Origin: Chlamydiota bacterium
GTDB taxonomy: Bacteria > Chlamydiota > Chlamydiia > Chlamydiales > 2-12-FULL-49-11
DNA: 43,328 nucleotides
Reading direction: 5' to 3'
Assembly (NCBI GenBank): GCA_023269435.1
Contig: JAHFTJ010000001.1
Location: forward strand, 1 to 43,328
The number at the start of each line of letters is the position of its first letter. Position 1 is the first letter of the stretch. This document shows, in pieces, positions 1 through 7,458 of this stretch. Made by a program: the position numbers and the translations under genes. Below the pieces are notes generated by a model. It did not search any database. It was not told where the DNA came from and saw only the letters and a program-made list of their open reading frames with translations.

Positions 1-120
1 TGGGCAAATTTTAAGAGAATGGTGAAGAATTGCATTGAAGACTTTTCTAAGCTTTCAGAAGCCATTGACTACGTATTTATCAAAGTATGCGAGGAGAAAA
101 ATAAAATTTAATCAACTATA
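1..120 (+). mobile_element. IS630-family element, right end (transposase C-terminus 1..111 plus terminal sequence ending ...CAACTATA)
   Basis: Frame 1 reads WANFKRMVKNCIEDFSKLSEAIDYVFIKVCEEKNKI*, resembling the tail that follows the YSPDLNPIE motif in IS630 transposases; it ends in CTA-TA, consistent with TA targeting. Truncated by the window edge. Confidence 0.65.
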
Positions 121-266
121 CAAGTAGCGAGTCTTATCTACATAAGTATAACCGCCTTTGATTAGGTTTGGGAAATGCTGGATGCCTGCTGGCGGATTGG
201 GTAATGCCATGGTGCCGAAGTTTAGCATGTTTCGTGTATGATTAGATACCGCGATTATTCAACCAA

Positions 267-301
267 TTGGAGGTGGAAAGACGTATTTAGAACTTTTCGA
301 T
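267..301 (+). repeat. att-like direct repeat, copy 1 (tmRNA 3'-end core plus conserved arm)
   Basis: TTGGAGGTGGAAAGACGTATTTAGAACTTTTCGAT; 31/35 identical to 1245..1279; first 15 nt match tmRNA end 2012..2026 at 14/15. Confidence 0.85.
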
Positions 302-329
302 TGAAAAGTTTGGTAGCTTTTTCTATGAT
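301..329 (+). promoter_or_regulatory. sigma66/70-type promoter for the radical SAM gene
   Basis: TTGAAA-N17-TATGAT, ending 5 nt before ATG 335. Confidence 0.5.
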
Positions 330-334
330 AAAAA

Positions 335-1211
335 ATGCTTATGTTCGTTCTACTTTTCCAAGAAATTCATATTGAAAATACCAATTCCTGCGGTTACAAA
401 TGCGTCATGTGTCCGCGTGAGAGTCAAACGCGTCGGATTGGCTTTATGTCTTTAGGAGATTTTTCCCTTATATTGGAGAGAATTGGTCAGTTTAGCGGAA
501 TTTTTCATTTGCATGGGTTTGGAGAACCTCTTCTCGATCGACAGCTTGTTCCAAAAGTCCAAGAACTGAAGAAGAAAAGCTCTTCTTCGTTAGGATTTAT
601 TATTTCTACTTTAAGCGTTCGGGTTGCAGAGGATTACTTTGCAAAGCTGCTTGAAGCAGGTCTTGGTGGGATAATGATCAGTTTTATATGGGTTTACTGT
701 AGATGACTACAAAACAATCCATGGGTACAATGGATTTGAGCTAGTAAAACGAAATCTACAGCTTTTGAGCGAAGCGATGAAGCGTTTTCCCAAATTCACC
801 GCAACTATTAAAATCCCATCTTCCTCTCTTTCCTCTACTTTACCTGTCGCGGAACCTCCAGAAAAAATTGAGTTTTGCCGATGAGTACAGAAACTTGGAT
901 TTAACATTGGAGAATGATCCTATGTCCATAATTATAGCGATGGAAGGAATTATAACCTTCCCAACACAGAACGAATGTGTTCTGTTATCTCTGGGAAGAG
1001 GGAGAACATCTTAAACATTACTTGGGATTTGAATGTGATTCCCTGCTGTTATGATTTTAATGCGACAATTCCCTTTGGTAATCTTCGTAAGCAGAGCCTC
1101 GAAGAGATTTTCTCTAGCTCGGAATATCTGACTTTCGTATTTGCTCATCGAACTGACAACTTGGCTGCTTATCCAGTTTGCCAAAATTGCGAGAAAAGTG
1201 ATTACAAATAA
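335..1211 (+). pseudogene. Radical SAM/SPASM(Twitch)-domain protein, disrupted
   Basis: CxxxCxxC motif (CGYKCVMC), HGFGEPLL, C-terminal IPCC..FGNL...CQNC. Frameshift near 682-686 and in-frame TGA codons at 882 and 915 join ORFs 335..706 and 975..1211. Confidence 0.9.
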
Positions 1212-1244
1212 AAAAAGTCTCGGTTACCCGAAGCCTTTGGTATT

Positions 1245-1279
1245 TTGGAGGTGGAGAGACGCATTCAGAACTTTTCAAT
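1245..1279 (+). repeat. att-like direct repeat, copy 2
   Basis: TTGGAGGTGGAGAGACGCATTCAGAACTTTTCAAT; first 15 nt identical to tmRNA 3' end (2012..2026). Confidence 0.9.
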
Positions 1280-1343
1280 GGGAGAAAATTCGCCTTTTTC
1301 TTCTCCAAATGCCTGCTTATGGCAGATGAGAGATATTAGAGGC

Positions 1344-1372
1344 TTGACAATTTCCATCTTTTTGGTTACATT
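1344..1372 (+). promoter_or_regulatory. sigma66/70-type promoter
   Basis: TTGACA-N17-TACATT. Confidence 0.5.
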
Positions 1373-1446
1373 ACCTGTTGATAAAGTTACAAAACCAAAT
1401 TGACCCATCGGCTGCTAGTCCTACGGACATGGCAGATTAACAAAAG

Positions 1447-1770
1447 GTGGTATGCTTTGCTGCAATTATCATACAGACGTTAGAACAATTTGATTACACA
1501 TCACAACCTTCTGTAGATCCAAATCAAATTAAGGAGATCGGGATGTGTCGCTGGATTTCACATGGTGACACTCCGCTGCTTTTGGATCCGCCTGGGGTAG
1601 GAAAAACACATCTAGCTGTTGCTTTAGGGCGCGAGGCTATTATACAAAATCAGTCAGTACTATTTATTTCGGCTGTCGCCTTGTTAACTCAACTTGTAAA
1701 AGCACATCAAGTAGGAAAGCTCGAAGAAAAAATCTCTTATTATAACAAGCAATCGCTAACTTCCGTTTGA
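1447..1770 (+). pseudogene. istB: IS21-family IstB-like ATPase fragment
   Basis: TLEQFDYTSQPSVD and Walker A-like DPPGVGKTHLAVALG (first G replaced by D); truncated before Walker B; no istA. Confidence 0.85.
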
Positions 1771-1967
1771 CCAACAGCTTATTGGCTGACTTCTATGCAG
1801 CCTATTGTCTGATTATCACTGCTGTAGACTTCACAAAAATATAGCAGGAAAGAGCTGAAAACTAAAGAGTTTTTACTGCAGTTTCATCCAGTCTAGTGCG
1901 TAAATACTGCGTAATTGGAGTTTACGCAACTGAATTTTTGTGTGTGAATTTCGTGTTGTATGTCACT

Positions 1968-2003
1968 AAAAACAAAAGGCTTCAGTCGTAAAACTGAAGC
2001 CTT
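1968..2003 (-). terminator. Intrinsic terminator of tmRNA
   Basis: 11-bp stem AAGGCTTCAGT/ACTGAAGCCTT (1976..2003) followed by T-rich run on the minus strand. Confidence 0.75.
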
Positions 2004-2012
2004 AATTTTGAT

Positions 2013-2423
2013 TGGAGGTGGAGAGAATTGAACTCTCGTCCTCGGTCGGTCCGAAATAATGACTACATGCTTATTACCTTGTAATAGATCAACCTTGCTG
2101 CAAGGCACCCCACTTGGGGTTGATCACCATTAATAATCTCGAGAAAGCCCTATAAAAGGTGTATTCAAGTTTCTCATACCAGGAAAAATGACGACGGAAT
2201 TAGACTCCCTGGTCCAACTCTAATACCATCGGCAGTTTAAATAACGTTAATTAATTAAGCTGCAATTGCAAACTCAGCAGTTGGCTCTTCGAAAAGAGAT
2301 ACTACTTTGCTTCTTTTTTGTCTGTTGACAATTTTTGTTTTACCGGATTTTTTAGGAGGCCAACCGATATCCTCCGCATGCCATATATTGCAGGTGCGAT
2401 CGTGTCGAAACCTATTCACCCCC
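2013..2423 (-). ncRNA. ssrA: tmRNA; predicted tag (A)VNRQKRSKVVSLFEEPTAEFAIAA at 2329..2255
   Basis: 5' GGGGGTGAATAGGTTTCGAC; 3' GACGAGAGTTCAATTCTCTCCACCTCCA; acceptor stem GGGGGTG/CACCTCC with G3-U; internal frame ending AIAA*. Confidence 0.97.
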
Positions 2424-5626: not shown

Positions 5627-7458
5627 AATATCCGTTTTTTTCTGCTATTAACATAATACCATAATCCAATTATTATGATTAGCGTTCCCCAGATTAATAT
5701 GTTGGTAACTGTAAAAAATGGGTAGATCAAATTATTTGCAAATCCAAAACGGCCCCCTGGAGCCCAAAACATTAGTAATGGTACACCTCGAAGGTTATTT
5801 TCTGGTACGAACCCAAAATCCCTGCTATCTGCGCTCATTGCATGGTTATCGCCAAGGACTAAATATTGTTTTTCTGGTATCAAGATCCCGTATTTCTTTA
5901 TTTTTTCTACATTTAACGATCCATCTTTGTTTAACGGTGGACCTAAATCGATGAATGGATGGTATGTATCGTTAGAATTAACCTTTAATGTTAATTCAGA
6001 TAATATAAATTGTTGAAGTACTGGATCATCGTGAGTGATAATTGGCGCCCCCATCAAATATAGGTCTCCGCCACTAAAATATGCATATCGCGACGGTAAA
6101 ATAGTGTTATCATTATATGATGGAATAAATCTATCGTCGCATTCTATTCCACTATTATAAAGTGCAAAAAGATGATTTTTATCAAATTTTGCTAATGGAT
6201 GATCTTTTGGTAAATTTTCTGTAACACCCTGTGATTTTATTTTACACAACTTACCATTATAAAACTCATAAGTTCCATTTGGAATATCACCTTTTAACTT
6301 AGGAATGAAATGAGTGTTTTGAGCATCTTTAGCAGAGACTCCATATCGTCTAAAATAACCATTTTCAATTATAAAGCGTCCAGTATAAATATTGTCCCAT
6401 ATTTTTTGTAAGTGACTTTCATTTAGTGGAATATAAGATTTTTCTAAATGAGCAATAGGTCGCATTCTAAAATAAAAATCGCGACTAAGTTTCGCTTTAG
6501 AAATAGATGGATGATGAGTTAACTCCAAATAAAATTCGCTAACTGGCAATTGATGTATAACATCCTTATGTTCTAACGTATTTCTTTTTATAAGTCTTGC
6601 ATTTGCATAATTTTCTATCCCCCAAAGTTCATATAAATCTGTTGCATTATCAGATAACATTTCATAATGGACATCTTTTTTAGAAGATGAATATAATTTT
6701 GCAACTGGAATATTCATTTGGTATAATGTAACAGGCGAAAACACATCGTTTGTTTTAGATGATTGAGCTCTTACCTTTCCTTCAATATTAATAAATGGTA
6801 TATGTTCTATGTAATTTAATTCATCTAGCTGAAGTTGAGTGGTTATGTTATTTCCATTTTTATCTATTCCATATATTTTTCCACCATAAAAATATAGCAT
6901 ATCGCCAGGAAGACCTACCATTCTTTTAATAAATTGTTTATATCCAGGAAATAAATAAAAATATCGCGTCTTTACATTAGCGATATCCATATTTTCTCCA
7001 GTAAAGATGGTAACACCCATGCGTTTGACATTTTCATGATTAAACAAAATGTGCGACGTTGTTAAAGGAATATTTATACCGAATTGGGTCTTTGAGACGA
7101 CTAATCTGTCTTGCTCCTTAAACGTAGGTCTCATTGATCCTGATGGAATTTCAAATAACTCAAATGCAACTTGACGAATTAATACTGCAATACATAATGC
7201 GAAAATTAATGAAAAAAAATTTTCATAAATTTTTTCAAATTTACTTTTCTTAAAATGAATAGACGATAATTGCTCAAGCTCTTTTGAGATAAAATCTGAT
7301 TTTTCTCTATCTTTATCTGATATAGCTCTTTCTAATTCTAAAATTTTAGATTTAATTTTATCTAATACATCTTCGGAAAATTTTTTTTGATTTTTACGGA
7401 ATATCTTCCAATTACTGTTTAGTATAGATTTTGATTTATATAATGAGTATAATTTCAT
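5623..7458 (-). CDS. lepB: Signal peptidase I (long chlamydial form)
   Basis: IPSGSMRPT (Ser), FIKRMVGLPGD (Lys), LGDNHAMSADSRDFG. Confidence 0.96.
   Translation of the reverse strand: MKLYSLYKSKSILNSNWKIFRKNQKKFSEDVLDKIKSKILELERAISDKDREKSDFISKELEQLSSIHFKKSKFEKIYENFFSLIFALCIAVLIRQVAFELFEIPSGSMRPTFKEQDRLVVSKTQFGINIPLTTSHILFNHENVKRMGVTIFTGENMDIANVKTRYFYLFPGYKQFIKRMVGLPGDMLYFYGGKIYGIDKNGNNITTQLQLDELNYIEHIPFINIEGKVRAQSSKTNDVFSPVTLYQMNIPVAKLYSSSKKDVHYEMLSDNATDLYELWGIENYANARLIKRNTLEHKDVIHQLPVSEFYLELTHHPSISKAKLSRDFYFRMRPIAHLEKSYIPLNESHLQKIWDNIYTGRFIIENGYFRRYGVSAKDAQNTHFIPKLKGDIPNGTYEFYNGKLCKIKSQGVTENLPKDHPLAKFDKNHLFALYNSGIECDDRFIPSYNDNTILPSRYAYFSGGDLYLMGAPIITHDDPVLQQFILSELTLKVNSNDTYHPFIDLGPPLNKDGSLNVEKIKKYGILIPEKQYLVLGDNHAMSADSRDFGFVPENNLRGVPLLMFWAPGGRFGFANNLIYPFFTVTNILIWGTLIIIIGLWYYVNSRKKRIF

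Follow-up and report, generated by a model that had tools for sequence, protein, structure and literature searches.

Tandem islands in Dehalococcoides, as described in the accessible portions of McMurdie et al. 2011 (PMC3146451), lie downstream of ssrA, the gene for transfer-messenger RNA (tmRNA), have direct repeats of its 3' end at their borders, and carry a CcrB-like serine recombinase, DsiB. Together with the composite islands of the staphylococcal cassette chromosome (SCC), they are, going by those portions, the closest match for a locus at the start of a 43,328-nucleotide (nt) stretch of chlamydial DNA, called the window below (positions 1 to 43328 of contig C21). The window is part of a 1.05-Mb assembly in 69 contigs, 90% complete, that is labeled G000 here; other G numbers denote sampled relatives, C numbers contigs, and L numbers fetched loci. 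What is this locus? Very probably, it is a fossil tandem array of small integrative elements that were inserted at the last ~14 nt of the tmRNA by a large serine recombinase (LSR).

The likeness to Dehalococcoides goes beyond the layout, which the two groups share. In both, according to the same portions of PMC3146451, a CcrB-like LSR gene sits beside the attL attachment (att) site, is convergent with ssrA, and extends at its 3' end into the repeat without an earlier stop codon, and about half or more of the units have no integration module (15 of 31 in Dehalococcoides). The chlamydial arrays, found in the phylum Chlamydiota, differ from what is described there in being built of much shorter units (median of 1.8 kb versus roughly 12 kb for the islands whose size is given), in having a non-ssrA arm that is fixed across the order, in the sister clades of their enzyme at nine kinds of tRNA gene, and in the absence of a DsiA-like second small recombinase or a six-gene module beside the LSR of relative G234. 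The chlamydial LSR is likened to DsiB by the published description of the latter.

The SCC and SCCmec elements of staphylococci (CcrAB) offer a second parallel. By the part of PMC3146451 that treats them and by general knowledge, an LSR places cassettes at the 3' terminus of a single housekeeping gene, and the resulting arrays include recombinase-less units bounded by repeats of the target end. Here, unlike in SCC, the target is ssrA rather than rlmH/orfX and a single recombinase gene is seen. The chlamydial enzyme is also not a Ccr, since its best NCBIfam match, the CcrB model, scores 73.8 bits (aligned residues 6 to 455) against an equivalog cutoff of 900. Cis-mobilizable elements, and accretion at tRNA-type att sites, are alike in that recombinase-less units keep their att sites and stand in tandem with an autonomous element (PMC3146451 in part, and general knowledge); those described use tyrosine integrases, unlike the chlamydial LSR arrays.

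Integrons are the comparison drawn by the original prediction, a brief reading of the DNA that preceded this analysis. They do resemble the chlamydial arrays: short units, most with a single gene, are lined up at one anchor, every unit closes with a conserved recombination site, and the cargo is rich in toxin-antitoxin, acetyltransferase, and defense-type genes. The array is nonetheless not an integron, and that part of the prediction is abandoned: there is no IntI-type tyrosine recombinase (PF00589 matches neither G000 nor any of the 133 open reading frames [ORFs] in 10 arrays of relatives); the sites lack hairpin-type attC symmetry, being conserved one-sidedly over arm and core instead of forming folded palindromes (best dyad, 10 of 22 positions); and the units, which have promoter-like and terminator-like sites of their own, each copy the end of the RNA gene that serves as the anchor. 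For Chlamydiota, full-text searches of the literature (main texts) yielded no account of such elements; the accessible part of PMC5862659 mentions one element at a tmRNA gene and nothing chlamydial of this kind.

Copies of the tmRNA end and the arm beside them

The repeated core consists of the final 14 nt of the tmRNA gene (2013 to 2026) plus one more base. This 15-mer occurs exactly at 2012, exactly at 1245, and with 1 mismatch at 267, always on the same strand, so that direct repeats of the ssrA 3' end follow ssrA at successive spacings of 767 and 978 nt, as originally predicted. Only 0.05 matches are expected by chance, and none of 100 shuffled sequences held three or more copies. The two extra copies have 35 nt in common (267 to 301 and 1245 to 1279; 89% identity) and bear the same non-tmRNA arm, which proves to be ~23 nt long rather than 20 (282 to 304 and 1260 to 1282). 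In the sense of the tmRNA, this arm, the P arm below, lies on the tmRNA-proximal side of each extra core, where it replaces the T arm of the gene. No further copy of core or arm was found in the 69 contigs of the assembly, and there is no sequence to the left of the window, which starts at base 1 of its contig.

How widespread is the P arm? Allowing up to 2 mismatches, arm plus core was found in 142 of 401 sampled genomes and in 102 of the 216 genera of the order, with none for a reversed control; the sites thus recur in related chlamydiae as well. The core pattern picks out arrays of same-strand copies downstream of ssrA in at least 10 of the 41 relatives searched, and in 9 of the 10 relatives whose arrays were fetched, the extra copies bear the same arm. 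Among genomes with long contigs, the arm site lies 0.35 to 12.6 kb downstream of the tmRNA-type site, on the same strand, in 19 of 20. Arm plus core was not found in a Chlamydia-like genus (1.1 Mb, 99% complete).

Across 51 distinct sites, the consensus ahead of the core is CCAATCAAAAGTTCTGAAYGCG; positions more than 22 nt out on one side, and those directly behind the core on the other, are no more conserved than background. Ten central consensus letters were used to select the sites; the eight outer letters are independent of the selection and are 63 to 92% conserved. In L158 this P arm stands beside a tRNA-Tyr-type core and in L038 beside a tRNA-Met-like one, so the arm is a half-site of the recombinase family and not a piece of tmRNA; it is the far-end half-site of LSR elements. 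A 10-mer of the arm, AAGTTCTGAA, recurs with an inverted copy ~35 nt on inside the C-terminal coding part (SSE...FQN) of the recombinase genes. The pair is seen in nearly every member of the LSR family, Patescibacteria included (for example, L088 at about 5925 to 5990 and most of L091 to L200), and reflects either chance in the coding sequence or an additional binding site. The inferred attP was also considered for dyad symmetry as support for an LSR site, and the symmetry was left unused as too weak.

The recombinase of relatives

Which enzyme goes with the arm? In G234, a 496-amino-acid (aa) protein adjoins ssrA and combines a resolvase catalytic domain (Resolvase, residues 3 to 152), a recombinase domain (Recombinase, 179 to 263), and a zinc ribbon (Zn_ribbon_recom, 278 to 329). 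Its N terminus contains ARVSSREQ, which we take to be the catalytic-serine motif. The protein matches a PHROG integrase family at an E value of 1e-70; a sequence search of the PDB gave no match at an E value of 0.001. The G234 gene opens a 12.6-kb unit that starts with the LSR at ssrA, ends in arm plus core, and is followed by the conserved block found downstream of ssrA. In G191, a truncated LSR of 426 aa occupies the same place against ssrA.

The LSR gene is convergent with ssrA and reads into it. The G234 stop codon falls within the T arm of the tmRNA. The gene ends in NWRWRESNSRP, residues that core and T arm encode when read in reverse; the flank ATTGGTTGGA... that comes after the core in many genomes is therefore the coding tail of the LSR. 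LSR homologues (E value of 1e-20 or better) occur in 90 of the 401 genomes, many of them as C-terminal stumps only. Thirteen of the 30 best homologue loci abut the series T arm, core, tail, and five of these genomes (G153, G108, G332, G118, and G388) have an arm site 6.6 to 10.3 kb downstream, with contig and strand the same. In sister clades, the enzyme gene borders on a tRNA gene, of nine kinds in all. Eighty homologue loci were typed in named genomes of Rhabdochlamydiaceae, Parachlamydiaceae, and Simkaniaceae and in Patescibacteria at 41 to 53% identity: 46 overlap the 3' end of an RNA gene (tmRNA in 17, tRNA in 29), 23 have no such gene there, 8 are at a contig end, and 3 lack the C terminus. 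The prediction that the repeats are att sites anchored on the ssrA 3' end, and that a single recombinase family goes with them, is thus borne out, with the family now identified as the LSR that is tied to the shared arm and found next to ssrA in relatives.

How would such an array arise? The attachment site of the element would comprise the ~22-nt P arm, a copy of the tmRNA 3' end as the core, and a P' side located in the last codons of the LSR. Exchange, presumably catalyzed by the LSR, would take place within the core, so that the tmRNA 3' end would be rebuilt from the copy of the element and P arm plus core would remain at its distal end after insertion. Each later insertion, made at the site nearest the tmRNA, would then displace older units outward. 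Read in the sense of the tmRNA, the locus runs from the tmRNA with its core and downstream block through unit 2, P arm and core, unit 1, and P arm and core again to the LSR tail and the end of the contig.

The locus in the window

The features are as follows, in the order in which the tmRNA is read.
2012 to 2423, minus strand: tmRNA gene (ssrA); Rfam RF00023, 118 bits versus a gathering score of 47, full model 1 to 374
1858 to 2011, minus strand: conserved ssrA-downstream block, 154 nt; 77 to 92% identity to the blocks of relatives
1283 to 2011: unit 2, in four parts (the block, ~90 nt unmatched, an IS21 remnant, and a 115-nt arm-adjacent piece)
1398 to 1770, plus strand: IS21-family remnant, an end-like piece of an insertion sequence (IS) at 1398 to 1475 and an IstB fragment (ORF 1447 to 1770)
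1283 to 1397, minus strand: right-end remnant of an integrative element in unit 2, cut off by the IS21 piece; assigned by sequence identity to G001
1245 to 1282, minus strand: att site 2, core (1245 to 1259) and element-borne P arm (1260 to 1282); assigned by the P-arm consensus
302 to 1244: unit 1, with radical-SAM/SPASM cargo
341 to 1211, plus strand: radical-SAM/SPASM pseudogene, the cargo of unit 1; Pfam Radical_SAM and SPASM in separate frames
301 to 329, plus strand: promoter-like site just inside the P arm, TTGAAA-17 nt-TATGAT, matching 10 of 12 consensus positions and reading into the pseudogene
267 to 304, minus strand: att site 3, core with 1 mismatch (267 to 281) and P arm (282 to 304)
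238 to 281, plus strand: LSR gene tail, ~14 last codons, reading into the core; the ORF continues through the P arm to 375
112 to 228, minus strand: PF09820 AAA-ATPase-like N-terminal fragment, 38 aa; Pfam E value of 7e-6, profile 1 to 25 of 201
1 to 120, plus strand: contig end within a repeat; 28x in metagenome contigs versus ~5x nearby, the contigs diverging after 120

The tmRNA gene was not called by ARAGORN at 2012 to 2423. ARAGORN does call the tmRNAs of relatives L091, L092, and L097; in the Rfam alignment, the tmRNA of the window has a long insertion after the tag region, and its 118 bits compare with 130 to 170 in relatives. Beyond the gene, ileS starts at 2519 on the opposite strand.

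T arm, core, and downstream block together look like an unoccupied attB-type site (site 1). Counterparts of the block in other families follow either ssrA or a distal arm-plus-core site, and the block is better conserved between families than the tmRNA gene itself (77 to 92% versus 76 to 83%). It contains a terminator hairpin (1976 to 2003; 4 compensatory pairs), where a terminator is called, and behind it the motif series TGCGTAA..TTACGCA..TTTACGCA. The block may act as an operator or promoter; alternatively, it may be the left end, itself mobile, of units without a recombinase. A reading as RNA was dropped, as covariation is confined to the terminator hairpin, the remainder is a DNA-type palindrome, and Rfam finds nothing.

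Unit 2 does contain the predicted IstB remnant, which covers positions 62 to 155 of the 238-position Pfam profile IstB_IS21 (E value of 8e-24); positions 1484 to 1750 are 96% identical to an IS21 copy on contig C51 of the same genome, and the end-like piece at 1398 to 1475 is 89 to 92% identical to C59, C40, and C12. Next to the arm, positions 1246 to 1399 match, at 88% identity, the arm-proximal end of a 9.3-kb unit that belongs to a same-family genome (G001:C11; L038, 2730 to 2883). The simpler alternative offered by the original prediction, two heavily eroded tandem islands, fits this unit, whose arm-proximal 150 nt match the end of a larger element and are cut by IS21. Att site 2 is followed, in the tmRNA sense, by a terminator-like hairpin at 1219 to 1232, and its flank (1211 to 1244) is similar to that behind arm plus core in G191, G241, and G379. 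With arm, core, and terminator flank, it is the far end of an insert.

Unit 1 was predicted to hold exactly one radical-SAM gene. The gene is there at full length, 74 to 78% identical throughout to an intact 289-aa homologue (G255, tblastn), but it is a pseudogene, with one frameshift near 682 to 684 and two in-frame stops near 882 and 915. Homologues were scored in 400 genomes and found in 24 others; none of the nine fetched loci has core or arm within 1.5 kb, and in G295 the homologue has no site on its flanks and stands ~3.5 kb past the final site of the ssrA array. Each unit has a good sigma-70-like match (10 of 12 positions; 301 to 329 and 1344 to 1372) that lies 20 to 85 nt inside the P arm and points into the cargo. 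Promoter-like matches were called by consensus only, with 11 found versus 6.4 ± 2.5 expected.

Att site 3 and its flank (232 to 266) form an attP-type junction of P arm, core, and P' side, the junction expected where the far end of one element meets the near end of the next. A recombinase-tail flank behind a P-type site is seen at just 3 of the 51 sites, this being one. The ORF at 238 to 375 begins MIRYRDYSTNWRW, compared with MIGYKDHPTNWRW in the recombinase tails of relatives; at the DNA level, 237 to 281 is 80 to 84% identical to the tails of G039, G034, and G118. The prediction of no integrase in either unit consequently stands for recombinase genes, with the reservation that this ORF starts with ~14 codons of an LSR tail. 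Those codons are all that G000 has of the LSR gene overlapping the repeat, a Dehalococcoides-type feature that is present in relatives. In place of the body of the gene stands the PF09820 fragment, which is 89% identical to C66:1008-1125. Since positions 1 to 120 belong to a repeat, the contig ends here and the array cannot be traced further left; a recombinase beyond that point was considered, but the contig ends at base 1, and no other G000 contig has core, arm, or LSR.

Could anything at this locus still move? PF00589 (tyrosine recombinase), PF00239, and LSR homologues all have no match in the 90%-complete G000 assembly. The array is therefore a relic, and with the recombinase lost, nothing at this locus can move now. 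A XerC/XerD-type recombinase was likewise not seen in the assembly; relatives have at least two.

Units and arrays in relatives

Recombinase-less units bounded by arm plus core, like both units of G000, turned out to be the rule in relatives. Among 44 units in 29 genomes, 28 are shorter than 3 kb (median, 1.8 kb); the recombinases in them amount to one full-length LSR, the truncated 426-aa LSR, and four C-terminal stumps. Tyrosine or serine recombinase families matched none of the 133 ORFs in ten arrays. Among another 142 ORFs were the G234 LSR and a single PF00589 match, in G001. Many units hold one or two intact accessory genes, among them Fic, GNAT, AAA_14/DUF4143, AAA_16, AbiEii with DUF6088, RhuM, and HNH.

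Two loci, L031 (G039:C30) and L032 (G032:C3), have at least six arm sites and intact-looking single genes (Fic, GNAT, AAA_16, AAA_14/DUF4143, HNH, AbiEii with DUF6088, and an aldo-keto reductase) in genomes with LSR stumps only. They are the best places to look for mobilization in trans. XerCD or a dif-like site was considered, since the only tyrosine recombinases of G039 and G032 are two Xer-like ones; it was dropped on the linkage to the LSR and on the lack of PF00589 in G000. The tightest array seen, G393:C1:102808-103183, has three exact cores 181 bp apart.

Not all ssrA repeats bear the P arm; others copy the T arm of the tmRNA, or at least 40 nt of the gene, instead. Repeats of this second kind are seen in L038 (G001:C11), L074 (G397), L090 (G235), L036 (G009), and L037 (G002:C57), and those of G001 enclose an 8.4-kb island that encodes a tyrosine integrase and a DUF927 primase-like protein. 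The ssrA site is thus used by two families of elements.

Weighing the explanations

An LSR array of the kind proposed accounts for the repeats, the arm, and the recombinase tail, and several observations nevertheless weigh against it. The best dyad of the inferred site is weak wherever it is centered. The tail remnant is short: 238 to 281 is the best match in the genome to the last 40 aa of the recombinase, at an E value of 0.11, and 9 of 13 residues agree, 4 of which the core encodes. In G039, an array of six sites carries intact-looking cargo, yet the genome has only its two Xer-like tyrosine recombinases, no PF00239, and a 102-aa LSR remnant. Three further features concern the mode of insertion. 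(i) In G000, the conserved block is proximal to the tmRNA and the arm sites are distal, while canonical attP × attB insertion followed by deletion would put the block at the far end. (ii) The direct repeat extends 30 to 150 nt past the core in G001, G002, G032, G062, G328, G037, and G292. (iii) The block is highly conserved and occurs twice within some arrays (G037 and G292). Conservative exchange at a 14-nt core gives neither the extended repeats, nor the duplicated and highly conserved block, nor the block order of G000. All three would come from units that carry their own core and flank, or from homologous recombination between repeats.

Recombination itself was not seen. The circle search covered contigs from three runs of one groundwater study, in which the genome-specific parts of G000 have a depth of ~5x, and no joint for the 978-bp unit was found in them. 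A single contig joins 2005 to 1247, with no letters shared at the joint and the break 6 nt before the core, and so looks like the distal att site of a relative rather than a circle from G000. Loose ends at 2026 continue into a P arm at a depth of 80 to 125x, versus ~5x; the junction of flank, core, and P arm in these contigs is not assignable to G000 and may belong to more abundant relatives.

Are the short units wrecks of larger islands, or were they always short? It is possible, though doubtful, that they are nonautonomous elements, each made of core, own terminator flank, cargo, and P arm, and that the array was built of them before the enzyme was lost. Tentatively, an LSR acting in trans on noncanonical site pairs would then insert and excise units one at a time at ssrA, as a serine-recombinase analogue of the integron. 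The small size of most of the 44 units, the near absence of LSRs from them, and the one or two intact genes in many speak for this. So does the repetition of the terminator/downstream block after successive cores within one array (G002, G032, G039, G328, G037, and G292), which is exactly what units carrying their own flank would give, and the order in G000 fits better than insertion followed by deletion. Canonical LSRs, however, pair attP with attB only, or attL with attR given a directionality factor. Unit 2, moreover, consists of an IS fragment and the truncated end of a larger unit; the right ends that carry TetR and a flavin adenine dinucleotide (FAD) monooxygenase recur in units of 0.9 to 9.8 kb, which resembles a deletion series; and no circle or reshuffled form appeared in the groundwater contigs. 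A precedent is available in the 15 Dehalococcoides ssrA islands without an integration module, for which the authors, in the accessible portions of PMC3146451, propose cis-mobilizable elements. At its broadest, and with the same reserve, the idea would be that environmental chlamydiae (and Patescibacteria, by kinship of the enzyme) run an LSR gene-capture system in which recombinase-less units of one or two genes, each with a tmRNA-end copy, terminator block, cargo, and 22-nt arm, might be exchanged singly at ssrA in trans on pairs that canonical LSRs refuse, the downstream block being the mobile left end.

A very improbable explanation is that the repeats are scars of classical, P4-like islands with tRNA- and tmRNA-specific tyrosine integrases, since eroded. 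Such an island does exist beside ssrA in G001, with its PF00589 integrase and its end in a tmRNA T-arm copy, and it illustrates the difference: that repeat has the tmRNA's own T arm, whereas the extra copies in G000 carry the P arm. PF00589, absent from G000 and from the ten arrays, is confined in the second ORF set to this one T-arm-type island, and the site has its P' side within the coding sequence of a serine recombinase.

Local tandem duplication or chance, unrelated to mobile DNA, has almost no probability left and is refuted by the shuffles and the order-wide distribution of the arm: the core is just 15 nt in an AT-rich genome, but three copies never arose in shuffled sequence, the arm is common to 141 other genomes at the same locus (control, 0), and the two units have no sequence in common except the site.

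What the arrays mean for chlamydial biology

With the LSR array as the preferred reading, the locus in the window is a relic only: a reduced chlamydial genome lost its recombinase, and the array decayed. Across the order, elements of one family, with a fixed 22-nt arm and an LSR gene whose reading frame passes through the att site, are present at ssrA in about a third of the genomes sampled, and their cargo comprises Fic, toxin-antitoxin, defense-type, and small-molecule-modifying genes. The arrays thereby mark a path for gene flow in bacteria with an obligate intracellular life, one easily tracked by its sequence pattern. The enzyme family, with clades for ssrA and for nine kinds of tRNA gene, represents a set of natural site-specific integrases with readable attB/attP pairs.

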